A stretch of DNA of 59,366 bases from the IMG/VR virus record IMGVR_UViG_3300046779_001979, positions 1-59,366 of that record, one strand, 5' to 3'. Source of the DNA: a virus (taxonomy: Duplodnaviria; Caudoviricetes). A program made the position numbers and the translations under genes. Of the stretch, positions 9,007 to 32,598 are shown in pieces. Numbering within the stretch: the stretch's first letter is position 1; each line of letters opens with the position of its first letter. Below the pieces are notes generated by a model, which ran no database searches, had not been told where the DNA came from, and was given only the letters and a program-made list of their open reading frames with translations.

Positions 9007-9007
9007 A

Positions 9008-12000: not shown

Positions 12001-12250
12001 CTGGAATATTATATAATCCATTACCATCACCTGTAAAACTACCAGTAAAAGAACCGGTACGATATGATGATGTGAACTCACCAAATGACGATGTCAAAGT
12101 GTAACTCGCAGCGTGTGACGCGGAAACTGCGTTGGATGTAGTACCACTTATTGAAGCGTTTATTACTCCGTCTACTGTTAGGTTTCCCGCAATGTGACCA
12201 TTTCCGGCCACTTCCAACGAACCCGTTATACTGGCATCAAATATTTTCAT
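9008..12250 (-). CDS. Tail-fibre-like protein 1 with two (G-T/S-S)n repeat blocks
   Basis: Repeated TGS beta-type motifs, two Gly-x-Ser triplet blocks, C-terminal NLGSSSLRW...YTLVEGEKDLYLYNNK domain resembling phage fibre C-termini. Confidence 0.75.
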   Translation of the reverse strand: MKIFDASITGSLEVAGNGHIAGNLTVDGVINASISGTTSNAVSASHAASYTLTSSFGEFTSSYRTGSFTGSFTGDGNGLYNIPASGVTGLQLNKISDGNTNAQVYDGVGLRINDDTFVTGSVYVTGDVVINGTSYNAATSGTSGTSGSSGTSGTSGSSGSSGSSGTSGSSGSSGTSGSSGSSGTSGTAGTSGSSGSSGSAGTSGTSGSSGSSGTSGTSGSSGTSGTSGSSGSSGTSGTSGSSGSSGTSGTSGSGGSSGTAGTSGTSGTSGTSGSSGSSGTSGSSGSSGTSGTSGSSGSSGTSGSSGSSGSSGTSGSSGSSGSSGTSGTSGSSGSSGTSGSSGTSGSSGSSGSSGTSGTSGSSGSSGTVTMTGTQDNGLLTLDGTSPNVTVESNLTFDGNNLKLVGNQYITGSLWVTQDFTVLGSASIVYVTSSQLNVDTSFISVNVNEPSERFGGLKIYDSGSANGTASFLWDSLNNRFIYQNASGSLYSGGMLLSGPRNTGSLGEEVALTSGRIPKSVGGDHLDNSIITESGGAIGVAGSLSVTGSLFINGTSYTAATSGTSGTSGSSGTSGSSGSSGTSGTSGTSGTSGSSGSSGTSGSSGSSGSSGTSGTSGSSGSSGTSGSSGSSGSSGTSGTSGSNGSSGTSGTSGSSGSSGTSGSSGSSGTSGSSGSSGTSGTSGSSGSSGTSGTSGSSGSSGTSGTSGSSGSSGTSGSSGSSGTSGTSGSSGSSGTSGSSGSSGTSGSSGTSGSSGSSGTSGSSGSSGSSGTSGSSGSSGSSGAATINSNTDNYVLTATGTAGLIQGEQYLQYNGTKLTVSNASIFGMIQGGSDNYHGIVMRGDFSDATVTTVTPTDVMNFIEYGGVWKFRQVNGTANTLRAYIDTTNGGGRLLDSVAYSYAANMNQNVRTSDSPSLNFLKLTAATSGGGSTGTPGLKLSGLSDYDSLELGVTGNYDGMIRTYGNDLRIYGGHWRNNATATEDHSIYFHTSKNGSTNWSTAKLRLDHDGHLTPGFNATQNLGSSSLRWNIVYSSDLSLKNEYGDYTLVEGEKDLYLYNNKLNKVFKFLLEEVDPSTAPPKKQE
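9910..10580 (-). repeat. Coding (GTS/GSS)n triplet repeat, block 2 of fibre 1
   Basis: Degenerate 9-nt periodicity; includes an exact 27-nt tandem duplication at 10023-10076. Boundaries approximate. Confidence 0.9.
11150..11840 (-). repeat. Coding (GTS/GSS)n triplet repeat, block 1 of fibre 1
   Basis: Direct translation; boundaries approximate. Confidence 0.9.
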
Positions 12251-12306: not shown

Positions 12307-14427
12307 TTAGAACAATAACTTGTCAATCTCTTTTATAACGTCTTGAGATGTGATATTTTTAGAACATTCGAACTGTCTATCTGTGTTTTTATGTACGGGA
12401 CACCAATTCCAATCACCCATATCAAAATCAAACTTATTCCAACAACTATTACACACATCTTTGTTAATAATTCGACTAATACCTTCTAATGGTTCAGTAT
12501 ATACATCGGTAAAACCTGATATTAAAATTGTTGGTGTTCCGTTAGCCCAAGCTAACCAACTCAATCCACTACTGATTCCTATGAATAGTTCTGATTCTTG
12601 TAGAACCTCGATTACATCATTTAAAGTACCACTTGGTTGTTGGATAACTCCTTTGGGGTTATTGTTACCCATATAACCATCTTCTTCTCTTGATAGTAAT
12701 CTTACCTCATAACCTTTTTCGTTTAAGTAATCAGTAATTTCTTGCCATCCATTGGGGTTATTCCAATACTTACATTGTGCTGTTGAGTGGATAGCAATTG
12801 ATACTCGTTTTTTAACAGATTTACCAATCTTTTTTAATTTAGGTCTTATTTCTTTATATGATAGTCCTAAGATATCAGATGCCATTTTTGTTAGTGGTTC
12901 CGTTTTAGGGTCTGTTGGGTGACAAGAATAACAAATCGATTCTCGATTCTCGGTATAGAACATTCCTAATCTATATAACGCATATAAATTATCAACACTT
13001 GAACCTGGTTCAACAAATTTAATGTTTGGATATTGTTCTTTAAATAAATCATTAAAGAAAGTTGAACAAATTACTTCGCTTCCCGTTTGTTTTCTAAATT
13101 CTTCAACGTAAGGTATGTAGGCTAAGTTATCACCTAATGATTTAGTTTCGAACACAATGAAGATTCGTTGTTTTTTAGGATTAAATTTATACTCCAAATA
13201 ATAATCATTATCAATACCTTTAATTTTGATTAACCAATTGACATAGTATTTTATAGAACATCTTGCCCAATGATTACTCTTTAGGTTTAATTCATACTCA
13301 ACCTTATCATTCTTTAAGTTAATAAATTCAACATGATAGTTTGAATTATTATCGTTTAAGATTTCAACGAAAGGTCCATCCACAAAATTTAAATTAACCT
13401 TTGTATTCTTTTGGTCTTTAAAGATGTGTTTGGTTTCTACAATATTCATTTCCTTAAATTCGTCGGTCAAAGTTTCTTCAAATACTTTTACTCCTTGATA
13501 ATATACCTCAACCACTTTACCATTTTCAAATTTACCAATGTTTTGTAATTGATAGTTTCCTTTGTTAATGGTATGGAAACGATTGTAACCATTATAGTTT
13601 ATTTCAACTAAGTAATCTTTGTCCGCAGGTTTATTGTCAAACCCTGATATAAAATGAACATACAATTCATCATTCGTATCCACACCAAGATAAGTTTGGA
13701 ACCTCGCACCATTTCTTAAAATACCATTTCTATTCCATGCTGCGAATATGTTTAACTCCTCATCATTTGGAATGTACTTACTAACAAAAATATTATTGGT
13801 AACTTTATTTAGTGTTTGGTATAATTGTTTTTCTAACTGCCACGAATCGGGTTTGTTCTTAAAGAACTCCTCTTTAGTGTTTATTGAATCAATCATTGAT
13901 TGAGCAATCTCGGTCTTAATTGAGAAAATATATGCGGCACAATATGGGTTATCACCTTTAGTTGAATCTTTATCGTATTCATATACTACCGCATCGTGAT
14001 GTCTAATGTATTCAATGAAAGATTGTCGGTATTGAATGGTATCAGGTAAGTTATCATACTCTAAAAAATGTATGTACTTCTTACCTAACATATTGGCAAA
14101 ACCAAATGCATTTTTCATTGTTAACCAAATGGCATAGTCATGATGAAATTTGTTTTTATTGATAACCTTGTATTCGTTCATGTCTGACCACCTATCACTT
14201 TCAATACCATATTTGGTGAAATCTTCATGTAATAATAAATCGTTATTATTATCATAGATGTAGTAGTCGACCATTTTTTGTATCTCTTCATCAACAGCAT
14301 AGTGACCACATAAAATAATAGGATAGTTAAATGATTTTAAACTACCAATCAAATTCTTTAAGGTTTCTTTCTTTTCAATTGTATCTAACCAACAATCAAT
14401 TATAAAAATATCTTCGTTTGAGTTCAT
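12307..14427 (-). CDS. TibC/Aah-like (autotransporter O-heptosyltransferase family) protein glycosyltransferase with extra N-terminal domain
   Basis: NFVDGPFVEI, SLGDNLAYIPY, HSTAQCKYWNNPNGWQ, FIGISSGLSWLAWA, ISGF, CNSCWN...DWNWCPVHK...FECSKNIT (Cys cluster typical of this family). Confidence 0.8.
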   Translation of the reverse strand: MNSNEDIFIIDCWLDTIEKKETLKNLIGSLKSFNYPIILCGHYAVDEEIQKMVDYYIYDNNNDLLLHEDFTKYGIESDRWSDMNEYKVINKNKFHHDYAIWLTMKNAFGFANMLGKKYIHFLEYDNLPDTIQYRQSFIEYIRHHDAVVYEYDKDSTKGDNPYCAAYIFSIKTEIAQSMIDSINTKEEFFKNKPDSWQLEKQLYQTLNKVTNNIFVSKYIPNDEELNIFAAWNRNGILRNGARFQTYLGVDTNDELYVHFISGFDNKPADKDYLVEINYNGYNRFHTINKGNYQLQNIGKFENGKVVEVYYQGVKVFEETLTDEFKEMNIVETKHIFKDQKNTKVNLNFVDGPFVEILNDNNSNYHVEFINLKNDKVEYELNLKSNHWARCSIKYYVNWLIKIKGIDNDYYLEYKFNPKKQRIFIVFETKSLGDNLAYIPYVEEFRKQTGSEVICSTFFNDLFKEQYPNIKFVEPGSSVDNLYALYRLGMFYTENRESICYSCHPTDPKTEPLTKMASDILGLSYKEIRPKLKKIGKSVKKRVSIAIHSTAQCKYWNNPNGWQEITDYLNEKGYEVRLLSREEDGYMGNNNPKGVIQQPSGTLNDVIEVLQESELFIGISSGLSWLAWANGTPTILISGFTDVYTEPLEGISRIINKDVCNSCWNKFDFDMGDWNWCPVHKNTDRQFECSKNITSQDVIKEIDKLLF

Positions 14428-17839: not shown

Positions 17840-18883
17840 CTAAATAAGGTTTTTATTTGCAACTATAAATTCATGAAAATTATGATAAACTTGTGGGTCA
17901 CCGTGTATCTTCATAACCTCATCTATAAATTGTGGATGCTCGGGATGCGATTCATCCCATATTTTTTCTTTCAAAAATTCCTCTTCAGTAAATGTGCCCC
18001 AATTGTTTATTTTAACAAATAAGACTAAAAGTTTTTTACCGAATATTTCTTTCATAATATCAACAAACATCTTCATTTCCTTATAGTTCTTTTGTTGGGT
18101 TACAAAGGATAGTTTAACTAATTTTAATGATTTTATGGTACTAATAAACTTTAAATTCTCAATAAGTCTATCCCATTTACCATTTAATCTAACTTTTGTT
18201 TCATATGTTTCCTTTGTTGCTGCATCGATACTAATTTCACATGAACCTACATAGTTATGTACATTTGGCATCGATTCCCACATTTCTTTAGACCAATTCG
18301 ATGCGTTGGTATGGAAATGTATATTTTTTAGTTTGGGGAATTTTGATGGGTCAAAGTTTTTAAGAAAGTTTCTATAGGATACTGATGCAAATGGGTCCCC
18401 ACTCGCACTTAAATATAACTCCTCAACATCCGAACCAAATACGTTTTCAATTTCCGTTATGGTGTTTTTTACCTCCTCAATTTTTTCTTTGTCGGCAGTG
18501 TAAACGGATTTTCTACAAGATGGACATTTATAGTTACAAGTTCTATCAAAATCAAAATCAATTCTACTTGGACTCTTTTCCGAAAAGAAATTATCTGGTA
18601 ATTTTGATTTATGTATAATTGGACCTTTGTCATCCACTTCATTATATCTTAATAGATGACTTAGGTATGGACATTGTTCGGTGTCACAGAATTTATATGA
18701 ACCATCGGTTACCGATTCTCTAATTTGTTTAGCAACATCTGAATTCCAAATGTCCTCAACTTTGATATCAACCGGTATATACTTTAACAACCATTCGGGA
18801 ACACATAATGCGTGGAAATATTCATGCATTTCTAATATTCTAAATGGATTTAAACATACGTAATCTTTTAAATTAGGTTTCAT
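17840..18883 (-). CDS. Radical SAM protein with N-terminal SPASM/Twitch-like domain (subfamily A)
   Basis: CNYKCPSC, SASGDPF, HTNA, SIDAAT; N-terminal C..PF...C...IWNS...C....CP. Confidence 0.88.
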   Translation of the reverse strand: MKPNLKDYVCLNPFRILEMHEYFHALCVPEWLLKYIPVDIKVEDIWNSDVAKQIRESVTDGSYKFCDTEQCPYLSHLLRYNEVDDKGPIIHKSKLPDNFFSEKSPSRIDFDFDRTCNYKCPSCRKSVYTADKEKIEEVKNTITEIENVFGSDVEELYLSASGDPFASVSYRNFLKNFDPSKFPKLKNIHFHTNASNWSKEMWESMPNVHNYVGSCEISIDAATKETYETKVRLNGKWDRLIENLKFISTIKSLKLVKLSFVTQQKNYKEMKMFVDIMKEIFGKKLLVLFVKINNWGTFTEEEFLKEKIWDESHPEHPQFIDEVMKIHGDPQVYHNFHEFIVANKNLI

Positions 18884-19365
18884 ATAATATTTTTGTTTAT
18901 CAATCTAAACCAAGTCACTAAACTATATCTTACCCCTTCGGTTATTGGTAAAACTCTATGTAATATTTTCTTATCCATAATAATAGATAGATTCGTTCGG
19001 GGGTTTATTATTTTTAATTCGTTGTTTACCACATATTCAAATTCTCCTCCGATGAAATCATCATTTAAATATGTCACTATGGTTAAGTCACTTTCATCTC
19101 TATGATAACCGTCATTTGTGTTTGTTTCCGGTATAATTTTATTTATAAAAATCCCGTTGTGTTGTATGTTATATTCATTACCAACAACATCCAAAACTCT
19201 ATTACGAAATTCATTTAAATTGGTGTCGTCGTATAAATGCATACTATTATAAAACCAATTAACACCATCAGGTATTGTTTGGTTATTCTTAACAAACGAC
19301 TCACATCTTGTAAGTATATAATTTAATTCGTTTTCTAATAATAGGTTAGAAAATGTTTTTATCAT
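18880..19365 (-). CDS. 2OG-Fe(II) oxygenase (prolyl-4-hydroxylase-like)
   Basis: YHRD, YLNDDFIGGEF, LHRVLP, RYSLVTW. Confidence 0.85.
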   Translation of the reverse strand: MIKTFSNLLLENELNYILTRCESFVKNNQTIPDGVNWFYNSMHLYDDTNLNEFRNRVLDVVGNEYNIQHNGIFINKIIPETNTNDGYHRDESDLTIVTYLNDDFIGGEFEYVVNNELKIINPRTNLSIIMDKKILHRVLPITEGVRYSLVTWFRLINKNII

Positions 19366-19930
19366 TTATTTTTTTTAATGGGTTTAAACTTATGTTACCG
19401 GCAAAAACTATTCTATCCATTTCAGAATTTTTGATGAGTTTTGGTGTATGTAATAAATCGGGTGGGAAAATAATAATATCTCCTTCTTCAGGTAAGAAAA
19501 GGTGTTCAATTCCATGTTCATCCATAAATGATATTTTACCTTCATCATTATCAATATTTTTAGGTACTTGAATATATAAACAAAATGTCCAATCTGTTTT
19601 AATCCTCTCATCACCTTCCAATAAATCGATGTGTGTGTGATAAATTTCTGCAGATGTGTTTGGATTCATTCTGTATATCCAGTTTTGTACCGCCCATTCT
19701 TTAACCTTCACATTTGATATTTTTGAACATTCAGATATAATCATATCATTTATCCAATCGAACTCATTACATCTAAATGACACATAAAAAAAATTATTCT
19801 TATCATTCGTATGTGTTTTATTTAATTTTATACTTTGATACGCCCTTTCTAATAAGTCGTTCTTTCTAAAGATAAAATCGTACCTCAATTTATATATTGA
19901 AAATTTATCACTTATAACAATCCTTTCCAT
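19346..19930 (-). CDS. Putative 2OG-Fe(II) oxygenase (HxH type)
   Basis: NWIY, YHTH, FCLYIQVP, PEEGDIIIFPPDLLHTP, RIVFAGN. Confidence 0.72.
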   Translation of the reverse strand: MERIVISDKFSIYKLRYDFIFRKNDLLERAYQSIKLNKTHTNDKNNFFYVSFRCNEFDWINDMIISECSKISNVKVKEWAVQNWIYRMNPNTSAEIYHTHIDLLEGDERIKTDWTFCLYIQVPKNIDNDEGKISFMDEHGIEHLFLPEEGDIIIFPPDLLHTPKLIKNSEMDRIVFAGNISLNPLKKINDKNIF

Positions 19931-20973
19931 TATATCAATTTTATCTCCCTTTTTATATGTTTAGAAACTATGTCGTGCATGTTATGAAATGAATTATATT
20001 TCTTATCTATCTTCATCAATTGTAATAAGAACATATTGAACATTGGGTGGTCTTCTTTGAATACTTCCTTCTCTTTAAACTCTTCGTTTGTGAACGTTCC
20101 CCAATTATCGATTCTTTTGAAATATATTCTTGCTTTGTTATTGAATATTTCTGACATTAGATTATAGAACTGTTCCATCTCCATAAAATTACTATCTTGT
20201 ACTATCATCGATATTCTTTTCTCACCTATAGGTAAGGTTGATATGAATTTTAAATTTTCAATCAACACGTCCCAATCACCACCTCTTCTAACCAACTCAT
20301 ATGTCTCCTTTGTTGCCGCATCGATACTAATCTCAATAATTCTTATCATTGAATGTATCTTACTCATCTTATTCCACATAGACTCATTCAATAATATTGC
20401 ATTTGTGTGTAAGTGAATATCATTAACATTGGGATATTTGGTTCTATCAAATTGTGTAAGTAACTTACGGAAAGACTTTGATGCAAATGGGTCTGCAGTA
20501 CCAGAAAGATATAAACCTTTTAATTTTTCTCCATATGAAGATTCAATCTCTTTTATGGTATAATCAATTTCACTAATTTCTTCTGAATTTGCCATTATTG
20601 GTTCCTTTCTACAGCTTGGGCATGAGAGGTTACAACTCCTATCAAACGAGTAGTTAATTATTTTTGGGTTACTGTAATCATTCTTAGCAAATTCATCTTT
20701 AGTGATGAAAAATCCTTTATCTACCGTTCCCTGATTAACTAACTCTGAAAGTACGGGACATAATTCTTCCACACAATGTGAATAGGAACCATCTAATATT
20801 GAATCTTGTACCTCTTTTAATGTGTCACTCTCCCAAACCGTTGAAACGTCTTTGATATCACTAAGTTTAGTTGGTAACCACGCAGGACAACAACTATAAA
20901 CACCCATATGGTGAACCTCCATATATTCAAAGGGTACTTTACATATATAATGTTTTCTTAAATCTAATTTCAT
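19930..20973 (-). CDS. Radical SAM protein with N-terminal SPASM/Twitch-like domain (subfamily A)
   Basis: CNLSCPSC, SGTADPF, HTNA, SIDAAT; N-terminal CKVPF, CCPAWL, GSYSHC...CP. Confidence 0.88.
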   Translation of the reverse strand: MKLDLRKHYICKVPFEYMEVHHMGVYSCCPAWLPTKLSDIKDVSTVWESDTLKEVQDSILDGSYSHCVEELCPVLSELVNQGTVDKGFFITKDEFAKNDYSNPKIINYSFDRSCNLSCPSCRKEPIMANSEEISEIDYTIKEIESSYGEKLKGLYLSGTADPFASKSFRKLLTQFDRTKYPNVNDIHLHTNAILLNESMWNKMSKIHSMIRIIEISIDAATKETYELVRRGGDWDVLIENLKFISTLPIGEKRISMIVQDSNFMEMEQFYNLMSEIFNNKARIYFKRIDNWGTFTNEEFKEKEVFKEDHPMFNMFLLQLMKIDKKYNSFHNMHDIVSKHIKREIKLI

Positions 20974-21731
20974 TAAATTAAAATTTTATTTTCAACACTT
21001 ATTATGTAATCCTTTGGTACAATTGGGTTATTGTATTTTAATGCACCACAATGATGTTTATAAGAATTACCTGTTGCACCTAAATGAGGTGTTAGATAAC
21101 TCCTTTTAAGATTTAAATGATTGGCACATAATGTAACCAAATATTGACCTCCAACCATTGTTGCAACGTCTACGTCAACCTCGTTTGTTTTCATAATTTC
21201 ATTTAAGAAATTATTGTATTTTTTCCATTGGTCAACGTAAAATTTTCTATCAGAATCGTTCTTAAAATATAATATACCACATGAGAAAACCTGTTTTCTT
21301 TTGTCACACCACACATCAATAACATTATCTATTCCTAATTTTGTAAATTGATTTATAACCGGTTCGTATTCATCTTTCCAATTTGCAACTTCATATGTAT
21401 CAAACATAACATCGTCATCCATTGGGGGTAATTTGGAGTGTAGGATAACATCTCCATCGATTAAAACAAAATCATCGTTCCTATCTTCACACGCCTTTAT
21501 TTTATAACAATCCCATTGTATTGAATTTTCATAATTGTCATATATATGAATCTCATCAACAATCTTTTCGAAATATTTTGCGGAAAATGAGTCGGTATAG
21601 ATAATACAATAATAACCAAACCGTTTTGCCGACTGAATTGATAGAATGTAATAGTTTATCAATATTCTTTTTCGTTCTTCGGTTTTGTTCCCAACCTTAG
21701 CCAATATATTATATGTCCATACTAATTTCAT
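20973..21731 (-). CDS. Putative GT-A-fold nucleotide-diphospho-sugar transferase
   Basis: IYTD, FVLIDGDVIL (DxD), SCGILYF, late His pair (YKHH). Confidence 0.5.
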   Translation of the reverse strand: MKLVWTYNILAKVGNKTEERKRILINYYILSIQSAKRFGYYCIIYTDSFSAKYFEKIVDEIHIYDNYENSIQWDCYKIKACEDRNDDFVLIDGDVILHSKLPPMDDDVMFDTYEVANWKDEYEPVINQFTKLGIDNVIDVWCDKRKQVFSCGILYFKNDSDRKFYVDQWKKYNNFLNEIMKTNEVDVDVATMVGGQYLVTLCANHLNLKRSYLTPHLGATGNSYKHHCGALKYNNPIVPKDYIISVENKILI

Positions 21732-22429
21732 AGAATTGTTTTTGATGGTGGTTTAACCGAATCGTAATGTACAATGGCATTAAAAAACGGTTGTAACTCA
21801 GTAAAATATAACGAAATTCCTGTTAAATTACAAGCCAATGATATAATAAGACTTTCAACCGCACCATTGAGATTTTTACCGTGTCTATCTTTGGGTTGTC
21901 TATCTATTGTTCTATTATTTATTGATTCCCAATTGAATATGAATTCTTTTCTTTTATTTTCATCTCGTATCTTTAAAACGAAAACATATTCATCAAAAAA
22001 TCCAATATTGGATTCATTTGCACCGCACTCAGTTAGTGCGATACCGTATTGATTTAAATCGTGAAATGGAGTGGAACTTTTTAATATTTGATTTATCGAA
22101 ATTCTATTTCCTCTGATAAATTGTAAACCACCAAACCACTTTACATATAAACCATCCTGAATGTTTTCAAATGAATTATGGTCTATGTTAGTTTTTAAAT
22201 CAATATCAGTATCAAAACAAATAACTGTATCGTGTTTTTTAAAGGCCTCAAGTATCGGTATTCTTTTTTTGTTAAAATTAAATTCAGTTTTGTCTATAAT
22301 AGTGTTTTCAGTTTTAAATTTCTCATCATCTGTTAAAACATAAAAATCTGAATTGATTTTACCAACCAATTTTTTACATTCATCGACGTGTTCTTTTCCG
22401 AACGCAATTGAACATACACCAACACTCAT
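21728..22429 (-). CDS. Putative GT-A-like transferase, paralogue of 40819-41550
   Basis: VGVCSIAFG, YVLTD, FNFNKK, CFDTD (DxD), EYVFVL, GAVES pattern shared with 40819-41550. Confidence 0.45.
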   Translation of the reverse strand: MSVGVCSIAFGKEHVDECKKLVGKINSDFYVLTDDEKFKTENTIIDKTEFNFNKKRIPILEAFKKHDTVICFDTDIDLKTNIDHNSFENIQDGLYVKWFGGLQFIRGNRISINQILKSSTPFHDLNQYGIALTECGANESNIGFFDEYVFVLKIRDENKRKEFIFNWESINNRTIDRQPKDRHGKNLNGAVESLIISLACNLTGISLYFTELQPFFNAIVHYDSVKPPSKTIL

Positions 22430-22434
22430 GTACT

Positions 22435-22992
22435 TTAAATTAAAGATGGTTTTGATAAGGATTTTACCTGTTCGTAGTTAACCCAAATTACTAATGAAAA
22501 TCTAACCCCACTTTCAACTATCGTAACCTCATGTAGAACCTCTGGTTTAAACATAATGACATTACCAATAGTTCTATCCATTACATTTGGTTCATTATCA
22601 ATTAAATAACGAAAATCCCCGCCAATATAATCATTGTTGTCACTTAATTGAGTGACAATACAGAAGAATCTTTTTTCACCTTCTATTGGTAAATCGTTAT
22701 GTAAAAAAATAAAATTACCTTTCTCGTATTTCAACACCCCCGCATCTAACTCATCGGCGGTGAATTCATATCCAAAATTCTTAATCGTATCGTTTAGTTT
22801 ATGATAATACGGTGAATCATTTTTTAGTTTAAAATAAGATGCTTTATTATATCTTTTATTTTGAACAACAATATCTTCCACCTCACCCAAACCTCTTTTA
22901 ACTAAGAGTTTTGCATCCATCCAATCACTAACATTATTTTTAATATTTTCACAATCCTCTTTGGTGAAAACAACACCTTCATAGTTTATCAT
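22435..22992 (-). CDS. 2OG-Fe(II) oxygenase (prolyl-4-hydroxylase-like)
   Basis: FTKEDC, KYEKG, LHND, QLS...YIGGDF, LHEVT, RFSLVIW. Confidence 0.85.
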   Translation of the reverse strand: MINYEGVVFTKEDCENIKNNVSDWMDAKLLVKRGLGEVEDIVVQNKRYNKASYFKLKNDSPYYHKLNDTIKNFGYEFTADELDAGVLKYEKGNFIFLHNDLPIEGEKRFFCIVTQLSDNNDYIGGDFRYLIDNEPNVMDRTIGNVIMFKPEVLHEVTIVESGVRFSLVIWVNYEQVKSLSKPSLI

Positions 22993-23627
22993 AGTATTGA
23001 ATTTTGAGTATATGGACTTTTATTTGTACCAATTTTTATTTGTTCCAATATCCAATTTGCCAAATCTAAATGACCCTTTTCGGAATAATGAAAATCAACC
23101 ACTTCTCCGTATGTTTCTTCGGTTATAGATTGGTATTCTGTATTGTTATGCCAAGTCCAATGGATAACTGTAGAATCAATCAACGCTCGATTGATTAGTT
23201 TAATCCAACTATCAATTTCCGTTAACCATAATTGATTCTCTCTATTTGTGAATACGTCTAAAATAGTTTCATCTTTAACACCATTCACATATGGTAAACC
23301 TTTAGCAACCCTTGAACTTCTAACGGGTAGTGCCGTTCTCCATTTTTGTGTTGCACTATCAACTAATCTAAACCTAACAGGTTCGCTCCAATTGATAATG
23401 ACTATGTCTTGATTGATTTCGTTTATATTATTACACAATGTTTGAAAAATTGTGTAATTATCCATACCATAACTTTCAGCAAAATTCTTAATGGGTAAAT
23501 TTAATTGTTCACCCAATATTTCATGGTAGGTTTTTGGTATGTACCCTTTCCAATCTGTGTAACTATTGTTATTGGAAAGGATACGTTTGTCGGTGAAACT
23601 ATCACCAAACACCCAAATATTTTTCAT
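22989..23627 (-). CDS. SGNH/GDSL-like hydrolase or acyltransferase
   Basis: WVFGDSFT, G.DN, VDFHYSEKGH (DxH). Confidence 0.72.
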   Translation of the reverse strand: MKNIWVFGDSFTDKRILSNNNSYTDWKGYIPKTYHEILGEQLNLPIKNFAESYGMDNYTIFQTLCNNINEINQDIVIINWSEPVRFRLVDSATQKWRTALPVRSSRVAKGLPYVNGVKDETILDVFTNRENQLWLTEIDSWIKLINRALIDSTVIHWTWHNNTEYQSITEETYGEVVDFHYSEKGHLDLANWILEQIKIGTNKSPYTQNSIL

Positions 23628-23636
23628 AACATTCTA

Positions 23637-23783
23637 TTAAGAGTGTGCGTTCTTCAAATATTGAATAAAATTACTCACAACAGTATTCACTTTTTGTTTT
23701 TTTGTTGTGTCAGTTAACAAAGTGAGTGTTCTCGTTTGTGATTGAACTAATGTTATCTGTTTGTATATTGTTTTCGATGCCAT
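23637..23783 (-). CDS. Unannotated 48-aa basic, Thr-rich peptide (MASKTIYKQITLVQSQTRTLTLLTDTTKKQKVNTVVSNFIQYLKNAHS)
   Basis: Translated by hand; ATG to TAA fills the gap between the Hint gene and the SGNH gene with 6-9 nt spacers. Confidence 0.7.
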   Translation of the reverse strand: MASKTIYKQITLVQSQTRTLTLLTDTTKKQKVNTVVSNFIQYLKNAHS

Positions 23784-23789
23784 AATGTA

Positions 23790-25682
23790 TTATTTGTTAT
23801 GTACTAATATGTTATTAGCGTAAAAGTTATGGTTGTCCGCCACGGTTATGATATATGTTTGTGTATCAACTTCCGGTAATTTTCGTAAACTATGTAAAAT
23901 TGTTGTCGTTCCATCATATAAATTCGCAACATCATCAGTTTCTAACGCCTTGATTGGTCTACCTAAATTATATCTTGTTATAGTTAATCCTGGATGATAA
24001 GATGCTAAGTTTAAACCATTCACATAAATTGGGTGGTCCTGTGTACATGTTAATTTTAAAAATACATCTTCTTCTCTTGGTTCAGTTGCTTTAATTAGAA
24101 CCTTATCAAATGTATACTCCACTAAATCATTGTGAATTGGTTGTTTGGTATCAATAACCTCTTTAGCCTCGATTTCGTTTGTGGTTTCGTTATATGACAT
24201 TACTTGGTCACCAATTTGAACATCTTCAATGTTTTTCTCACTACCATCCGCCATTTTTATCTTTGTTCCCGCCTTAAAACAACTACCAGAAATACCCAAG
24301 TTGTGAGTAATGTAGAATGTTAATAGATTACCATTACTTAAAATAAAGTTATCGACTTCTTCCATGTTCATATTATATATTGGTTGTTCTTCATCGTAGA
24401 TGTTTAAATTTATTTGACTAATTGGATTCAATCCATTTTGCCCAATAACCGAATAATTACTACTTAATTCTGACACTCTAACGTATTGTATTTTATCTTC
24501 TAATTGATTATAAACCAACATTCTTGCCTCACCTCCAATTACAATGTCGGAACCGTCTTGGAATACAATTTCAGTCATATCGTTGGCAAAAGTAGTTGCC
24601 TCAAATTTACCAACCAATACTGAAGATGTTAAATACGAACCTGAAGGTAATGTTGAACCAGTAACGTACCATTGTCTTAAAACATCATAATCATCCGTGT
24701 TAGGTGAACCCTCAACATAGTATGATTTATATGTGTTTCCTAATACAACATCTTTAACCTCCACTTCATTTCCATCAACATCTAAAATTGTCTCATTTTC
24801 TAAAAGTCCGTGGTTTGTATTTTTAATGGTATTTGTTGCATATTCATAGTAGTGTTTACTCTCAATTTGATTATCAATTCTACTATCATCATATGTGATT
24901 GATGTCGGTAAATCTAAAACCGAATCGATTTCATACTGAGCAACGTAACATAAATCTAAATTAGAACCATATACAATTTGGAAACTACGGATTGAACTTA
25001 CTGTTCCTTTTGTAATTTGTGATTGTGGGATATGGTATTGTTGTAAAATATTATCTGAGGTTGCAATTCTATCAATAAAACTTTCATATCTAACTAATGA
25101 CCCCGAATCGGAATTACCGATTTTATAGAATTTATGTGGTTGGTGTGCCTCCAATACAGTTTTAGTGACAATATCGGGTAAATTAGACCCATTAAATTGA
25201 TTTTGGTCTAATGTATTATAATATCCATAATATGAGGATGAATGATAGAAATTCGTAATTGATCCTGTGTCACTTTCATCCGCAAATAGTTTTAATAGAT
25301 TTAAAGTTCCTTTAGCATATTCAGAATCCAAAATCGCGGATTCATCATATGCAAATCGAATAATAAATTTACTAGGCGAATCTGTAGGTGACGTTGGGAA
25401 TATTGAATCTGCCGCCACTATATGTTCGGTAAATGAAGTAATAAAAGGTGCATTATTCGTTAACGCATCAGATAAACTTGAAATGATATCTTTTTGGATA
25501 TCATATTTGTAGACTACTTCAACTTCAGTAATATTATTTGCACTTAATACACTAATAAAGTCGGTCCAATCAAAAACCCACTTTTGTGACTCCAATATAC
25601 CTGTATCGGTGTTAATTTCAATTAGACGTAGATTGTCGTCCTTGTCTGTTACGAAATCCGCCGAAAAAAAAGTTCCTTTCAT
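23790..25682 (-). CDS. Permuted ATP-grasp-like domain + two tandem Hint (intein-like) domains
   Basis: SADFV...LIEINTDTG, PDIVTK, ILQQY, SIRSF. Degenerate Hint ~aa 292-461 ending ITHN; canonical Hint aa 468-629 CFKAGTKIKMADG...CTQDHP...HNFYANNILVHN-K. Confidence 0.8.
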   Translation of the reverse strand: MKGTFFSADFVTDKDDNLRLIEINTDTGILESQKWVFDWTDFISVLSANNITEVEVVYKYDIQKDIISSLSDALTNNAPFITSFTEHIVAADSIFPTSPTDSPSKFIIRFAYDESAILDSEYAKGTLNLLKLFADESDTGSITNFYHSSSYYGYYNTLDQNQFNGSNLPDIVTKTVLEAHQPHKFYKIGNSDSGSLVRYESFIDRIATSDNILQQYHIPQSQITKGTVSSIRSFQIVYGSNLDLCYVAQYEIDSVLDLPTSITYDDSRIDNQIESKHYYEYATNTIKNTNHGLLENETILDVDGNEVEVKDVVLGNTYKSYYVEGSPNTDDYDVLRQWYVTGSTLPSGSYLTSSVLVGKFEATTFANDMTEIVFQDGSDIVIGGEARMLVYNQLEDKIQYVRVSELSSNYSVIGQNGLNPISQINLNIYDEEQPIYNMNMEEVDNFILSNGNLLTFYITHNLGISGSCFKAGTKIKMADGSEKNIEDVQIGDQVMSYNETTNEIEAKEVIDTKQPIHNDLVEYTFDKVLIKATEPREEDVFLKLTCTQDHPIYVNGLNLASYHPGLTITRYNLGRPIKALETDDVANLYDGTTTILHSLRKLPEVDTQTYIITVADNHNFYANNILVHNK

Positions 25683-25771: not shown

Positions 25772-25981
25772 TTAGTCTTTTTTGACCCCGTATTTTATCC
25801 ATCTATACCATATTCTTTCATGTAAAAAATAGATTAAAGGTTTAATTATTAACTCCCCTAAACCCACTATTCCGGCCCATTTTATGGGTAAACCGGCACA
25901 TACGGTTAATATTATCGTGGTTAAAGTACCCAAAATTCGATAACTAATACTTTTTACAATATGTCTCTTAATTTGAACCAT
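25772..25981 (-). CDS. DUF2061-like small membrane protein
   Basis: RHIVKSISYRILGT...K..IYFLHERIW pattern. Confidence 0.75.
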   Translation of the reverse strand: MVQIKRHIVKSISYRILGTLTTIILTVCAGLPIKWAGIVGLGELIIKPLIYFLHERIWYRWIKYGVKKD

Positions 25982-26312
25982 TTCTAATATTTGTTCCGCT
26001 TATTTTTGCAATATCTTCCGGTGGTTCGTGATATATCACATCATAACCAACCCCTCTACCGTAGTTTACTGATTCAATATCAGGTATAATACTAACCAAG
26101 ATTTTATCTAAATTCTTTTGGATAAACGGTTGTTCAATTATGTTCAACATAACTCTATGTGCGGTGTTAGGGTTGCTCTCATCAATTTCAACATCCCTAA
26201 TTGCAATCCACACATCCTTACCCTTATCTAATTGTTGACTAATCAACCATTCATGTCCCCTATGCCAATTTTGCCATCTCCCCGGAAACATTGCGTACTT
26301 TTTTTTACTCAT
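25968..26312 (-). CDS. Cytidylyltransferase-like (HxGH) nucleotidyltransferase
   Basis: GRWQNWHRGH, YGRGVGY, ISGTNIR. Confidence 0.75.
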   Translation of the reverse strand: MSKKKYAMFPGRWQNWHRGHEWLISQQLDKGKDVWIAIRDVEIDESNPNTAHRVMLNIIEQPFIQKNLDKILVSIIPDIESVNYGRGVGYDVIYHEPPEDIAKISGTNIRNGSN

Positions 26313-26746
26313 ATGTTTAATTTTTTTCTTAAATCTAAAAACGTATTATATTCACTACTATTTGTAGTGTCACAATCATAATAGTTATATAATGGTGGTT
26401 CATAGTTTGATACGTGGAAACTTTCCTTACCTCTTTCATTTGTGGTGTGGACGTAGATTTCTTTAATCTTTTCCCCCATATCTAATTTAAATTGTTCTCT
26501 TTGGTCTCTATATGGTGAAACCATTGCAACAATAACAGTAAAACCTTTGTGATGTAGGAATTTGGATAATATTTGAGCCTTTTCAATGTTCTTTTTTCTA
26601 CCCTCTTCAGAATAATCTTTATTTACAAAGATATCACGAATTTCATCACCATCAATTATGATGGATTTGTTTGGGTAGATTGATTGTATCCACGAAGCTA
26701 ATGTTGTTTTACCTGAACCAGGTTGACCGGTTAACCAATATATCAT
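26309..26746 (-). CDS. cysC: Adenylyl-sulfate (APS) kinase
   Basis: WLTGQPGSGKTT, IDGDEIR, YSEEGRKKN, VSPYRDQR, YEPP. Confidence 0.82.
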   Translation of the reverse strand: MIYWLTGQPGSGKTTLASWIQSIYPNKSIIIDGDEIRDIFVNKDYSEEGRKKNIEKAQILSKFLHHKGFTVIVAMVSPYRDQREQFKLDMGEKIKEIYVHTTNERGKESFHVSNYEPPLYNYYDCDTTNSSEYNTFLDLRKKLNI

Positions 26747-26752
26747 ACGAAT

Positions 26753-26781
26753 AATATACTAAAAAATGTTTGAAAAAACAA
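26753..26781 (-). promoter_or_regulatory. Sigma70-like promoter, near-leaderless
   Basis: TTGTTT-N17-TATATT, 6 nt before the ATG at 26746. Confidence 0.5.
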
Positions 26782-26784
26782 ATT

Positions 26785-26901
26785 TTAATGGTTGTAAATG
26801 AATGGGTCTCTTTTACGTAACTCTTCTAATTTTTTCTTAAATCTTTTCTTTCTCTTCCTTTCCTCAATAAGGTCAAGGAACCATTGTATTAGTCTTTTCA
26901 T
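26785..26901 (-). CDS. Unannotated 38-aa basic peptide (MKRLIQWFLDLIEERKRKKRFKKKLEELRKRDPFIYNH)
   Basis: Translated by hand; begins 2 nt after the carbamoyltransferase stop; PFIY tail. Confidence 0.7.
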   Translation of the reverse strand: MKRLIQWFLDLIEERKRKKRFKKKLEELRKRDPFIYNH

Positions 26902-26903
26902 AA

Positions 26904-28571
26904 TTACTTGTATAATAGGTAGTTACCGATTAGTAAAAAATCCATATCAGTTTCTAAAAACATACTCACCGCATCTTTTGGTGTTAAAACCATTGTTTTA
27001 TCTTTTACATTCATCGATGTGTTTAATAAAATAGGATAACCGGTTTGTCTTTCAAATTCTTTTAATAAGGCATGTACGAATGTATTCTTATATACCGTTT
27101 GAATTCTGGCACTACCATCGATATGTGTAACTGCCGGTAGTTTTTCTTTATATTCAGATTTAACTTGTACCACCTGATTCATATATGGAACATCATCAGT
27201 AACGTGAAAATAGATGTGTTGTGATTCCTTAGTAACCATCGGACCAAATGGTCTAAAACCCTCTCTCTTTTTGATTACCTTGTTTATCTTATCTTTCATT
27301 TCAGGTCTTGTCGGGTCGGCTAATATACTTCTATTACCTAAAGCCCTTGCACCGAATTCGTTGTGTCCATGGTAAACTCCAATTACCTTACCTTCTTTTA
27401 ATAACTTCGCAACATTTCTAAATAAAGTATCTTCTGATTTAAATTTGAAGTATTTTCTACCTGTAATTGCATTTGTTATTTCATTATAATAAAATTCGGG
27501 TCCTAAGAATGGGTTCTTATTAACCCTATCCTTTAAACTTTTATTTTTTACCAAATAATGTAAACAAGCACCTATTGATGAACCCGCATCTGATGGTGCC
27601 GGTGGAATCCACAAATTATTAAATTGTGAGTTCTTAACTATCTTACCATTTAATGTACCATTATACGCACATCCACCTCCTAAACAAAGATTACGATTGT
27701 CGTTTATTATTGAGATTGATTTAACAATCTCAAAGAATAGTTCCTCGTATCTTTTTTGTATTGCGGCGGCTAAATCCATATGGAAAGGTTCTATTGATTC
27801 TTCAGGTAATCTTGGGTCAATCTCCAATATTTCAGAAAGTCCGTAATTGAACATTTCTTTTGTCGATTTGTCCCAAGTAAAAACATCCATATTACATTCC
27901 AACTTTGTATTTTTGTATGAAATTAACTTTCTAACCTTATCTATGTAAACATTAGGATTACCGTATGGTGCAAGACCCATAACCTTATATTCACCCTCAT
28001 TTGGTTTAAATCCTAAGAAAGATGTCATTGCAGAATAGAATAACCCTATCGAATGTGGGTAGGTTGCCAATGATATATAATCAATTCCAGTGTTATCTCC
28101 CAAACCCATCGATAGTGTATCTTTTTCACCAACACCATCTATTGATAGGATTAACGCATTTTCAAAATTCGATGTATAGAATGAATAATATTGGTGGGAT
28201 AAATGATGTTCTGAATAAAACACTTTATCACCATATTGTGATAAGTTTTTCTTTAAATCTCTATAGTTTTTTAAAACCTTAAATAAAGACTTAATTGAAT
28301 ATAATGGATTTTTAAAGAATTGTGGTTTAATGTTATCAATGACTCTACCTATCTTAAGTTTTGGGTCTTCATAATAACATACCATATCAACATCCTTCTT
28401 TGATATTTTATATTTTTTAAAAATATAATCTAAAGTTTTTGTTGGGAATGAACTATCGTGTTTTATACCTGAAAACTTTTCCTCTTCGCACGCAAAAATA
28501 AGTTGTCCGTTTCTAAATAAACAAGCGGATGAATCGTGATAATAAGCTGAAATTCCAATTACATATCCCAT
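26904..28571 (-). CDS. NodU/CmcH-family O-carbamoyltransferase
   Basis: GISAYYHDSSA, EHHLSH, IDGVGE, EYKVMGLAPYG, GGCAYN, EFGARALGNRSILADP, KKREGFRPF, LNTS.N. Confidence 0.95.
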   Translation of the reverse strand: MGYVIGISAYYHDSSACLFRNGQLIFACEEEKFSGIKHDSSFPTKTLDYIFKKYKISKKDVDMVCYYEDPKLKIGRVIDNIKPQFFKNPLYSIKSLFKVLKNYRDLKKNLSQYGDKVFYSEHHLSHQYYSFYTSNFENALILSIDGVGEKDTLSMGLGDNTGIDYISLATYPHSIGLFYSAMTSFLGFKPNEGEYKVMGLAPYGNPNVYIDKVRKLISYKNTKLECNMDVFTWDKSTKEMFNYGLSEILEIDPRLPEESIEPFHMDLAAAIQKRYEELFFEIVKSISIINDNRNLCLGGGCAYNGTLNGKIVKNSQFNNLWIPPAPSDAGSSIGACLHYLVKNKSLKDRVNKNPFLGPEFYYNEITNAITGRKYFKFKSEDTLFRNVAKLLKEGKVIGVYHGHNEFGARALGNRSILADPTRPEMKDKINKVIKKREGFRPFGPMVTKESQHIYFHVTDDVPYMNQVVQVKSEYKEKLPAVTHIDGSARIQTVYKNTFVHALLKEFERQTGYPILLNTSMNVKDKTMVLTPKDAVSMFLETDMDFLLIGNYLLYK

Positions 28572-28592: not shown

Positions 28593-29825
28593 TCATTTAA
28601 AACTCTCCTCTAACCAAGGACACACATCCTTATAATTGGTATTGTTTATTTCATCAAATCTTCTCAATGTCTCTTCTAAAGAAATGTTCATATATTGTTT
28701 TTTGGACATTAAGTGGTTATAAACTTCCTCGTCGTTTGTTACTTTTAGGTAGTTAATAAAATCATTCAATAGTCTTGTTAATAGATGAATATTATCATAT
28801 TTTAACTCACTTAATCCTTTTTGATAGAAGTTAATTAACTCACTTTTAGTTTTCTCACTTAACGCTCCTGGTGCAAAATAGAATGGTTGAGTTACCGTGT
28901 GAAATCTGATATTATTCGGGTGAAGATACCTACTTCCAACATAATCAATAAATTCAAAAGAATGATACATATTGATTGTCGATATGGTGTAATCTATTTG
29001 AATTATAAAATTAGGGTGTTGATTTTTAAAGTCAACTAAGGTTTGTAAATTTTTGAAAAATCTTTCTGAATTAAATCCAGGTCTTTGGTATTCACCTATT
29101 TTACCATATCCATCACAAGAACACGAAATATTGATAAATTTAAACTTCTTTAATTTATCTAATATGTTAATTCCTTTATAGGTTAATGTTGATAAGTTAG
29201 TGTTTATTAACACAGTCACCTTACTTGCCTGTTCCTCACTAAATTTATCTAATAATTCAAAGGTTGATGGGGTGATAAATGGTTCTCCACCTGCTAAGTA
29301 TATTTTACGAATCGTATCGATATTCTCATCTGAAAATTTATCGATACCATTCTCACCAGCAGTAATAATTCTCGGATTTTCGTTTTGATATTCGGGTTTG
29401 TCCAATATGTAACCCCAATAATCATACCAACTGGATGATGAACCGTGATAACACATCCTACATCTAAAATTACAATGATTTGATAATCTCAAATCAGTAT
29501 AAACAATTTTATTTACTGTGTAATCATCGTTTACTAAATTAGGGTCTTGTGTTTCATGATAAAACTCCTGATTTATATTATTACGATGAACATTTTTGTA
29601 TATAAAACACTCCGCACATTCCGTTGGTTTTTTCCCATCTAGCATCTCCTTCCTAATCCTTTTATAAGGTTCGCTATTGATTACCTCATCCACAGAATTA
29701 AAGTCCTTAAAATTGATATTTTCTTTAAATGGATATGCAACACAACATGGGTGTAATGTTCCATCAGGAAACACATAAATCGACCCAAAGGGTAAATAAC
29801 AAAATGTTTCGGGGTTTATTTTCAC
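28593..29825 (-). CDS. Radical SAM protein with N-terminal SPASM/Twitch-like domain (subfamily B)
   Basis: FCYLPF, PCC, CAEC; CNFRCRMC; AGGEPF; NTN. Confidence 0.9.
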   Translation of the reverse strand: MKINPETFCYLPFGSIYVFPDGTLHPCCVAYPFKENINFKDFNSVDEVINSEPYKRIRKEMLDGKKPTECAECFIYKNVHRNNINQEFYHETQDPNLVNDDYTVNKIVYTDLRLSNHCNFRCRMCYHGSSSSWYDYWGYILDKPEYQNENPRIITAGENGIDKFSDENIDTIRKIYLAGGEPFITPSTFELLDKFSEEQASKVTVLINTNLSTLTYKGINILDKLKKFKFINISCSCDGYGKIGEYQRPGFNSERFFKNLQTLVDFKNQHPNFIIQIDYTISTINMYHSFEFIDYVGSRYLHPNNIRFHTVTQPFYFAPGALSEKTKSELINFYQKGLSELKYDNIHLLTRLLNDFINYLKVTNDEEVYNHLMSKKQYMNISLEETLRRFDEINNTNYKDVCPWLEESFK

Positions 29826-31114
29826 TATATTAAATTTGTAACTGTTTTTATTTCTTGTTTCGGGTTAAAATCTTGGAATTCTGTGAAGACACCAAAGAAG
29901 TCGTCTCCTCTATATGTGTCAACCACATCTGTCATTTTAAGGAAGTGTTGGAATTCTTCTTCTGAACGGTCTTGATTCATTAACCCAAGTATAAATTCAA
30001 ATTGTTCAATATCCTTTTGTGCTTCATTATCGTATGGATATGTTTCTCTAATCCAATCCATAATTTTAGCGTACTTTTCTCTTAAAATTACCTTATGGTT
30101 TTCAGGTAAATTACGAATCTGCATATGTGCCGGATGTGTTAATAAATTAACGTGCATATGTCCTGTTTTAATATAACCGGCAGTTACAAATTCTTTATAT
30201 AAGTCGATAATCGTGTAACTATTCATTATGTTAATAGTCGGTACAATTGCAAAGTAGATGTCAGGTAATTCTCTTAAAATATCAATTCTGTTTTGTACAA
30301 CCTGTGTCCATTTAGAACCGTTTCTTAAGTACTCACCTCTTTGTCCATAACCATCGATACTTGCAGTCACCTCAATTCTCTTAAAGTGTTTCCACATCTC
30401 AACAAGGTTATAGTTTTTGTATTGAATCTTGGTTAAATTTGTTGTAATCCATATTGAAATATTTTTAGCATATCCTTTATCAATACAGTATTGTAAAATT
30501 TCATAGTGTTTATCTTGTGTAAGTGGTTCACCTCCGGCAAAGAATAACACATCTACATTATGTAACTGACTCAATATGAATTCATAGTCATCACTATCAA
30601 CAGATTGACTATATGGTTGACCTAAGTCTTTGAAGTTTGTAAATCCTAACTCCTTATATTCCTTATACAAAGATGAAGAATAACTCGGATTACAGATACG
30701 ACATTTCAAGTTACATTTGTTATCAAAACGTAAGTCAATCATTTTGAAGTTAACCTCTTTTAATGAAAAGTCGTCATTTGTATTTGCAACAATGTCGTCA
30801 ATATATTTCATGAAATGGTTATTCAAATTGTATCGGTAACTATCGGTGATACTTTTACCTTTCGACACCTCTTCTCTAAACCAACAAATTTGACAAGCGT
30901 CTATCTTCTCACCGTTCCATAATGCCTTTCTAACACTCTTTGCGGTTTCTGAATTATAGGCATCTTTGATGGGTATACCTTGTTTTAATTGTCCAAATAC
31001 TTGGTCGTCTTCTTGTTTGTATAAACAACAAGGGATTATGTTACCAAATGTACTTAAATGTGTGGACACCCATGGTGCCACACAAAAGGTTTCTTCATTA
31101 AAATTCTTATCCAT
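29825..31114 (-). CDS. Radical SAM protein with N-terminal SPASM/Twitch-like domain (subfamily B)
   Basis: FCVAPW, PCC, CQICW; CNLKCRIC; AGGEPL; SIDG. Confidence 0.9.
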   Translation of the reverse strand: MDKNFNEETFCVAPWVSTHLSTFGNIIPCCLYKQEDDQVFGQLKQGIPIKDAYNSETAKSVRKALWNGEKIDACQICWFREEVSKGKSITDSYRYNLNNHFMKYIDDIVANTNDDFSLKEVNFKMIDLRFDNKCNLKCRICNPSYSSSLYKEYKELGFTNFKDLGQPYSQSVDSDDYEFILSQLHNVDVLFFAGGEPLTQDKHYEILQYCIDKGYAKNISIWITTNLTKIQYKNYNLVEMWKHFKRIEVTASIDGYGQRGEYLRNGSKWTQVVQNRIDILRELPDIYFAIVPTINIMNSYTIIDLYKEFVTAGYIKTGHMHVNLLTHPAHMQIRNLPENHKVILREKYAKIMDWIRETYPYDNEAQKDIEQFEFILGLMNQDRSEEEFQHFLKMTDVVDTYRGDDFFGVFTEFQDFNPKQEIKTVTNLI

Positions 31115-32597: not shown

Positions 32598-32598
32598 G

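Follow-up and report, generated by a model that had tools for sequence, protein, structure and literature searches.

Why should a row of unrelated phage enzymes end alike? The question is raised by a 59,366-nucleotide stretch of viral DNA (Duplodnaviria; Caudoviricetes; IMG/VR record IMGVR_UViG_3300046779_001979; 31% GC), here called the window and taken at its whole length, in which ORF calling places eight tightly packed consecutive open reading frames (ORFs) at positions 17840-23627 of the minus strand. Each terminates in two hydrophobic residues, defined as both last residues belonging to the set ILVFM (Table 1). A first-pass annotation had listed the eight C-termini and read them as a convergent signal on unrelated folds. 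All eight were confirmed exactly, with Lys at -4 to -2 (the terminal residue being position 0) in seven of them, and the seven plus-strand ORFs of a sugar operon that it had set apart indeed lack such an end (ESYA, AKKK, FLNL, INNR, YLSK, ELKK and KGLS). The run lies downstream of a gene for a protein termed HINTG, which comprises an ATP-grasp-like N-terminal half, a degenerate Hint domain ending in His-Asn and an intact Hint domain, and of a tiny ORF. Selection on the shared ending, hereafter the tag, acts at the level of the protein; the tag is specific to particular families and phages and co-occurs with HINTG. We tentatively regard it as a recruitment signal carried by the tailoring enzymes of a single pathway and read by a shared phage partner, most likely the ATP-grasp half of HINTG.

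Excess and conservation of the shared C-terminal end

The longest ORFs of at least 60 residues were called, with overlaps of at most 60 nt; as C-termini are set by stop codons, the tags are independent of these crude start-codon calls. Two-hydrophobic ends are carried by all eight genes of the run and by 6 of the 42 other ORFs of the window (Fisher p = 5.6e-6). The corresponding dipeptides occupy 9% of the internal positions of the same eight proteins, and 8.4% of ends would be expected to be of this kind from amino-acid composition. A near-identical phage relative (323,865 bases, 97% complete by CheckV), in which the second radical SAM enzyme of the run (rSAM_b) and HINTG are 93% and 96% identical to their counterparts in the window, displays 56 such ends among 382 ORFs, namely 14 of 26 at 240-270 kb as against 42 of 356 (11.8%) outside, with nine consecutive genes ending in this way at 248-254.6 kb. 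The overall background frequency of two-hydrophobic ends is 8-15%. Simple counts of hydrophobic termini are inflated by the phage peptide deformylases (family f13; loci L007, L012, L022, L051 and others), all nine of which end in EIV, an ending specific to them.

The distribution of the tag among families was determined for a first sample of 75 viral loci with a radical SAM alignment (1522 ORFs, 959 of them non-redundant at 90% identity, clustered by BLAST), and it is bimodal, families being tagged at either about 95% or about 0%. Tagged families include the 2-oxoglutarate-Fe(II) (2OG) oxygenases (80 of 82), the family f3 of unknown affiliation (25 of 26), the SGNH proteins (27 of 33), the 2OG_b type (17 of 22), the glycosyltransferase-like (GT-like) proteins (7/7) and several others (9/9 or 7/7). 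The tag is rare or absent in HINTG itself (0/22), the carbamoyltransferases (1/18), p114 (0/14), GT7 (0/13), GT4-FkbM (0/8) and fibre C-domains (0/9). With SET-domain and other methyltransferases as further tagged families, the tag is borne by about a dozen unrelated enzyme families of uncultured marine phages. The caveat of the first-pass annotation that AT-rich codons might favour such residues is not upheld, given the background and the family bimodality, and composition as the cause of the tag is ruled out by the background counts.

Homologues retain the tag down to about 25-50% identity, while linker and codons are variable. Among the best 120 of 2130 homologues of rSAM_b (48-93% identity), 119 display a two-hydrophobic end, 117 of these with Lys at -6 to -2; the lone exception is an incomplete 259-residue entry, and the residues in between vary freely. 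Homologues of the other radical SAM enzyme of the run, rSAM_a, at 40-55% identity end in KKIV, QNLI, KNLV, SKLI, KNII, KTLI and similar sequences, and all five database homologues of the family-less 233-residue protein (66-91% identity) end in KT[IL]L. The terminal residues are thus conserved in orthologues and in distant homologues. A profile built from the 2OG alignment and searched against 1.84 billion representatives retrieved 29,463 proteins at E <= 0.001 and 10,063 at E <= 1e-10; 130 of the best 150 representatives carry two-hydrophobic ends, 100 of them with a nearby Lys, in a ranking that leans to tagged proteins because the profile includes tail columns. Many of the 20 untagged representatives belong to a subtype ending in 'W.TGP.F[KR]'.

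A logo of 364 tagged proteins gives the consensus K(-3)-[KSTN](-2)-[LIF](-1)-[ILF]-COOH. Lys accounts for 47% of residues at -3; position -2 is shared by Lys (24%), Ser (16%), Thr (16%) and Asn (13%), position -1 is Leu in 62%, Ile in 22% and Phe in 8%, and the terminal residue is Ile in 55%, Leu in 25% and Phe in 10%. Lys is enriched from -6 to -2, and the last 10 residues carry a net charge of +1.2, compared with +0.6 in untagged proteins.

Three proteins among the best 2OG matches (P0152, P0235 and P0253) are long fusions of an AhpC/TSA domain with two 2OG domains, and two of the three proteins also contain a GlcNAc-transferase domain (PF11397); such fusions hint at hydroxylation followed by glycosylation.

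A protein-level end beyond the catalytic fold

Several properties of the coding sequence locate the signal in the protein. Leu codons at -1 match the general Leu codon usage of these loci, 127 LI ends are encoded by 24 different hexamer-plus-stop combinations, and tags occur in every class of gene junction, including 26% of genes that precede a gap of more than 40 nt. A DNA-level origin (ribosome-binding site, promoter or overlap constraint) is ruled out by these codon and junction data. Tag frequency does peak at 4-nt overlaps (64%), and ATA is over-used for the terminal Ile (71% versus 41%) because many junctions are ATGA overlaps. The overlap of one tail of the run with the next gene, noted in the first-pass annotation, is real and spans the 20 nt at 19346-19365 between 2OG_a and 2OG_b.

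The tag is located on a segment that extends past the catalytic fold. Beyond the conserved Arg, tagged 2OG oxygenases (n = 114) have a median of 19 further residues (range 13-22), whereas the type found in cultured phages, which ends at the last strand of the fold (e.g. '...GTRYSIVSWSV'), has 8. In the AlphaFold (AF2) model of 2OG_c (mean predicted local distance difference test, pLDDT, 85.6), confidence holds through the extension to about residue 180; pLDDT falls below 50 in the last 3-5 residues, the only unpacked ones. Structural comparison using Foldseek revealed that this model resembles protein prolyl hydroxylases, including PPHD (PDB codes 4j25 and 4iw3) and PHD2.

Relatives from cultured phages and from bacteria mostly lack the tag. 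None of the nine 2OG genes of S-MbCM7, ACG-2014f, HTVC033P and S-H9-1 is tagged, a two-hydrophobic end is found in 1 of 16 genes of the tandem dioxygenase array of Syn9, and 1 of 21 genes is tagged in a stretch of the pelagiphage HTVC008M. Among radical SAM homologues in the first 43 of 79 bacterial or metagenome-assembled loci (26-39% identity), five end in two hydrophobic residues, none of them resembling K-x-L-I; two of the 43 rows (L087 and L102) are incomplete reads. The expectation that cellular homologues would be free of the tail is therefore mostly borne out. Searches of a phage collection with the DNA and with the radical SAM protein returned no match.

These data bear on the simplest alternative, namely that there is no signal at all and that AT-rich composition, a stop/start overlap constraint or a structural cap needed by each fold produces the ending. 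The ATA excess and the maximum at 4-nt overlaps are what such a constraint would give. The background of 8-15%, the all-or-none distribution among families, the variation of codons, the presence of tags at all junction types, the mostly tail-less homologues of the same fold and the unpacked terminal residues of the model speak against it. The explanation is contradicted by the data and is regarded as highly improbable. The tag is almost certainly a real, selected signal, and the proposal of convergence on unrelated folds holds, in that homologues keep the end while codons vary over a low background. Neither outcome that the first-pass annotation named as refuting, a motif no commoner than in the rest of the genome or a loss of the terminal residues in orthologues, was observed.

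Co-occurrence with HINTG and candidate readers of the tag

In gene maps of about 20 diverse loci, HINTG stands at the head of a run of 6-16 tagged genes, all on its own strand. Of 21 non-redundant loci, 16-20 have a tagged gene at each of the positions +1 to +6 downstream of HINTG; on the upstream side, gene -1 is tagged in 16 of 20 and gene -2 in 11 of 20. A second sample of 80 loci, retrieved by means of HINTG alone, contains 67 distinct patterns, in 63 of which the first gene downstream of HINTG is tagged. Family tallies over 71 distinct loci of this sample show 2OG genes in 68, with 160 of 164 tagged, together with tagged radical SAM (56/64), f3 (49/51), SGNH (40/51), SET (26/26) and GT-like (29/29) genes, and untagged DUF2061 (0/22), HSP20 (0/21) and GT4-FkbM (0/17) genes. 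Besides HINTG, no untagged family is present in most of the 71 loci. The smallest loci contain just HINTG, the tiny ORF and at least one tagged enzyme, in most cases a 2OG oxygenase. Radical SAM genes are tagged in 24 of 27 cases near HINTG versus 37 of 66 elsewhere (p = 0.003), and a comparison of runs of at least four tagged genes with HINTG in the same stretch gives 36 stretches with both, 25 with neither, 2 with HINTG only and 13 with a run only.

Tag-like ends are also scattered in the 324-kb relative, where VKSLI, RDTLI, KKTLI and RKNLI occur far from the cassette (Table 1). The VKSLI protein is a 2OG oxygenase by family match, and two of the proteins are homologues of the tagged families f3 and f57; by eye, the RKNLI protein is SGNH-like and the one of 715 residues is radical SAM-like. 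The tag may thus mark pathway members genome-wide. Family f60 was set aside as a candidate, its sequence appearing PhoH-like by eye.

Of 22 non-redundant homologous loci, 21 have an ORF of 25-50 residues directly after HINTG, and the locus that lacks it holds a 156-residue Hint-only fragment; in the window this ORF is a candidate scaffold or precursor peptide. Pfam matches of HINTG are restricted to Hint/intein families over residues 465-630, and no ATP-grasp match was obtained in Pfam or NCBIfam. In an alignment of 21 homologues the N-terminal half is conserved, with invariant Asp-9, Glu-22, Asn-24, Thr-25 and Arg-109 among others; Glu-22 and Asn-24 may represent the ATP-grasp Mg/ATP motif. 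The degenerate Hint domain of these homologues, which ends in His-Asn, is followed by an intact Hint domain or, in shorter proteins, by a Cys-rich tail of 20-40 residues. A tblastn search with the N-terminal half gave no match in 50,697 phage records. An AlphaFold (AF2) model of residues 1-467 (pLDDT 79.6) matched bacterial intein-like (BIL) and intein domains in Foldseek (E 5e-10) and, more weakly, E. coli YjfC/YgiC (7uk6, E 1.1e-5; 7uk8, E 3.1e-5; TM 0.30-0.37). YgiC and YjfC are called peptidylpolyamine synthetases in PMC12568646, which cites Pederick 2023 for this.

At the end of the degenerate Hint domain (residues about 460-468 of HINTG, window 24282-24300) a conserved His-Asn is followed by Cys, and homologues without the intact Hint domain carry a tail with about six Cys after His-Asn. 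This tail has the look of a peptide set free by cyclisation of the Asn.

The extension of roughly 10 residues past the catalytic fold, with its free basic-then-hydrophobic C-terminus, would mark the tailoring enzymes of a single phage-encoded pathway of peptide or protein modification, comprising prolyl-hydroxylase-like 2OG, radical SAM, SGNH, SET and other methyltransferase, GT-like and several unknown families. One shared phage-encoded partner could thereby gather many small single-domain enzymes at the same place. Its role in binding, and the identity of the reader, we infer: a shared partner probably reads the tag, and its identity with HINTG is a reasonable possibility that falls short of being probable. 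The likeliest candidate reader would be the ATP-grasp half of the protein, alone or with the tiny peptide, as its fold appears to belong to ligases that grip the free C-terminus of a short peptide. The tiny peptide may be a substrate or a scaffold, and candidate substrates of the pathway are this peptide and the collagen-like fibre proteins of the window. Among the types of signal that the first-pass annotation had listed, docking to this next-door phage partner is favoured.

Several observations weigh against such a reading. The match of the HINTG N-terminal half to YjfC/YgiC is weak at the TM values and E (about 1e-5) given above. Some HINTG loci contain only 2-3 tagged neighbours, and 13 tagged runs have no HINTG in the fetched stretch; of 10 of these that were checked, HINTG lies just outside the stretch in two, while the other eight, being fragments of 3-48% completeness, neither support nor refute the link. 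A dioxygenase-like gene of HTVC008M (12970-13527) ends in EYKIV in a phage without a HINTG match, which may be either a chance match or a relic. The loci were ascertained by radical SAM or HINTG homology, and the 2OG profile ranking leans to tagged proteins, as noted above. Tags end in Leu in 38% of cases in the Hint-less clade and in 15% of cases in the clade with Hint, which is slight evidence of co-adaptation with HINTG, at a p value (0.004) not corrected for shared ancestry. A host factor, finally, may be the reader in place of HINTG.

Other candidate readers were considered. The Hint domain is unlikely to read the tag, since tags persist where it is absent, and homologues that have a Cys-rich tail in its place remain at the front of tagged runs. 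PDZ ligands carry Ser/Thr (class I) or a hydrophobic residue (class II) at -2 and a variable residue at -1. The phage tag resembles them in its hydrophobic free end and in Ser/Thr at -2 in about a third of cases, but position -1 is conserved (Leu, Ile or Phe in 92%) and -2 does not follow the class I/II pattern, so that the hydrophobic end alone fits. PDZ domains (PF13180 and PF00595) were not found at E <= 0.1 in the 324-kb relative, whereas control genomes match. The groove of HSP20, a small heat-shock protein, that binds I-x-I is likewise an unlikely reader, as the hydrophobic residues of the tag are located at -1 and 0 and are not spaced. The phage HSP20s bear L/I-x-I tails of their own, and HSP20s are presumably also present in untagged cultured phages.

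A different role for the same HINTG half would be catalytic, the tag serving as substrate of a ligase. The ATP-grasp domain would activate the terminal carboxylate and link it to an amine, which could belong to a polyamine, to a Lys of the tiny peptide or to the N-terminal Cys peptide freed at the HN|C junction; the enzymes would end up capped or covalently tethered. The nearest solved folds to the HINTG N-terminal half are peptide-polyamine ligases, Glu-22 and Asn-24 are invariant in the alignment, and the conserved portion of the tag has the size of a tripeptide and lies at the extreme C-terminus, with Lys common at -3. Conversely, the C-terminus of the tiny peptide is an equally good candidate substrate, and no ligase is known to have a dozen enzyme families as its targets; we consider this reaction unlikely. 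That it would join K-x-L-I carboxylates to a scaffold amine, and so build a covalent multi-enzyme machine in the infected cell, is similarly doubtful.

Alternatively, the tag could be a C-terminal degron for a host AAA+ or tail-specific protease, giving the enzymes a short, timed life. MuA-type ClpX signals consist of basic residues followed by a non-polar end, and FtsH and Tsp read non-polar tails. The basic-then-hydrophobic shape, the free carboxylate and the higher net charge of tagged ends agree with ClpX C-motif-2 and other non-polar degrons. The phage tag differs from these in being confined to the tailoring enzymes of one pathway and co-inherited with a single gene of phages whose hosts are probably different; its terminal residue shifts with the HINTG clade (a weak argument), and cultured relatives on similar hosts are mostly untagged. 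A degron is accordingly judged improbable.

Targeting to a place, such as a protein compartment, a membrane (e.g. via the nearby DUF2061 protein) or the virion, would follow the logic of the cargo tags of encapsulins and microcompartments and of the peroxisomal signal PTS1 (-SKL), in which a very short terminal motif likewise lies past the fold of unrelated enzymes; PTS1 also depends on a free C-terminus closely preceded by basic residues. The region lies amid tail-fibre, glycosyltransferase, carbamoyl- and sulfo-transfer genes, and DUF2061 recurs in 22 of 71 loci. However, no shell family was recognised in Pfam scans of 13, 23 and 26 cluster proteins, many of the neighbours being family-less, DUF2061 occurs in a minority of loci and two hydrophobic residues are too few for a membrane. 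The K-x-L-I motif is moreover unlike the cargo-loading peptides of those systems, occurs in a phage context where no shell or receptor gene was recognised and is borne by clients located beside an ATP-grasp/Hint gene. This possibility appears quite remote, and docking to a shared phage partner is retained as the preferred reading.

Genomic setting, known systems and biological meaning

The fold labels of the first-pass annotation stood in part. For the three 2OG oxygenases two Pfam matches exceed the cut-off and one falls below it, and the two radical SAM enzymes, which share 44% identity, are divided in the same way, rSAM_a falling below the cut-off. The SGNH and DUF6734 matches are both under the cut-off. 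Of the two proteins labelled GT-like, one displays only a weak DUF6734 match, and for the other, which has no match in Pfam or NCBIfam, the label is unproven since the protein is family-less.

Table 1. Positions and C-terminal residues of the tagged run, HINTG, further tagged genes of the window and tag-like ORFs of the 324-kb relative.
Feature	Coordinates	Strand	C-terminal residues (position)	Length and family match
rSAM_a, radical SAM enzyme	17840-18883	-	NKNLI (17843-17857)	347 aa
2OG_a, 2OG-Fe(II) oxygenase	18880-19365	-	NKNII (18883-18897)	161 aa; PF13640, 33.9 bits (over cut-off)
2OG_b, 2OG-like	19346-19930	-	DKNIF (19349-19363)	194 aa; PF13640, 24.8 bits (just under cut-off)
rSAM_b, radical SAM enzyme	19930-20973	-	EIKLI (19933-19947)	347 aa; PF04055, 32.7 bits (over cut-off)
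DUF6734-like (GT-like?) protein	20973-21731	-	NKILI (20976-20990)	252 aa; weak sub-cut-off DUF6734
Family-less protein	21728-22429	-	SKTIL (21731-21745)	233 aa
2OG_c, prolyl-hydroxylase-like 2OG oxygenase	22435-22992	-	KPSLI (22438-22452)	185 aa; PF13640, 31.9 bits
SGNH/GDSL-like protein	22989-23627	-	QNSIL (22992-23006)	212 aa; PF00657, 21.7 bits (below cut-off)
Tiny ORF	23637-23783	-	NAHS (untagged)	48 aa
HINTG	23790-25682	-	(untagged)	630 aa; intact Hint at residues 468-630
GT9-domain protein	12307-14427	-	KLLF	706 aa; possible further tagged member
Radical SAM protein, N-terminal SPASM domain	29825-31114	-	TNLI	second, partly tagged cluster
Second-cluster member	32599-33849		KSIV	
Second-cluster member	33846-34862		LTII	
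Second-cluster member	36228-37067		IVLI	GT2
Scattered tag-like ORF, 324-kb relative	101872-102561			
Scattered tag-like ORF, 324-kb relative	182072-182650			
Scattered tag-like ORF, 324-kb relative	194622-196769			
Scattered tag-like ORF, 324-kb relative	213279-213908			

Beyond the run, the family of the GT9-domain protein is tagged in six of nine members. A row of six radical SAM genes extends over 28593-36226 of the minus strand, with the tag on only three; four of the six display a SPASM match (Pfam) at the N-terminus, ahead of the radical SAM core. Between this row and HINTG, on the same strand at 25772-28571, lies an untagged module consisting of a carbamoyltransferase, an APS-kinase-like protein, a 114-residue protein with an HxGH-like motif and the DUF2061 small membrane protein. 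Such a module adjoins tagged runs in many loci, and it may be a source of carbamoyl or sulfate groups. Six minus-strand paralogues of 230-390 residues (7105-7920, 7933-9045, 43758-44537, 44548-45726, 50357-51106 and 51135-51821) adjoin two giant proteins with collagen repeats (9008-12250 and 45728-49465) and share a different conserved C-terminus of their own, ...R-G/x-R-F-G/S-[VLI].

The encoding of a tiny peptide and an amide ligase together with many tailoring enzymes recalls the LysW/LysX carrier, peptide-scaffold and RiPP (ribosomally synthesised and post-translationally modified peptide) pathways, and the tiny ORF found in 21 of 22 loci beside prolyl-hydroxylase-like 2OG, radical SAM and SET enzymes is a RiPP-like trait. 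In those pathways either the peptide itself or an enzyme-borne RRE domain provides recognition, whereas here the tag is carried by the enzymes. A described arrangement of a similar kind is the tandem dioxygenase array gp45-gp54 of Syn9, for which modification of peptides or metabolites was proposed in the part of the article available (Iyer et al. 2010, PMC2938197). It similarly presents diverse 2OG oxygenases in tandem near tail-fibre genes in T4-like marine phages, but it is untagged, as counted above, and no ATP-grasp/Hint gene is annotated in the Syn9 stretch that was fetched. Radical SAM cassettes are reported in host-recognition islands of pelagimyophages in the accessible portion of PMC7029224. 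A shared C-terminal tag is not mentioned in the portions available of either article. Among the titles and abstracts of the literature searched, no description of such a tag or of an ATP-grasp/Hint module was found. Short tags that sort enzymes to one reader are known from peroxisomes, encapsulins and microcompartments, and to our knowledge none has been described for a phage biosynthetic pathway.

The tag is widespread and allows the genes of a pathway to be named by sequence alone, even where they are scattered across a genome. It ties the long-puzzling dioxygenase and radical SAM arrays of marine myophages to an ATP-grasp/Hint protein and a tiny peptide. If the ligase acts on the tag, this would constitute a new kind of protein-conjugation system, and a recruiting tag of 4-5 residues would, if true, be a handy tool for synthetic biology. 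The tag suggests an as yet undescribed means by which a pathway's enzymes are brought together or labelled.

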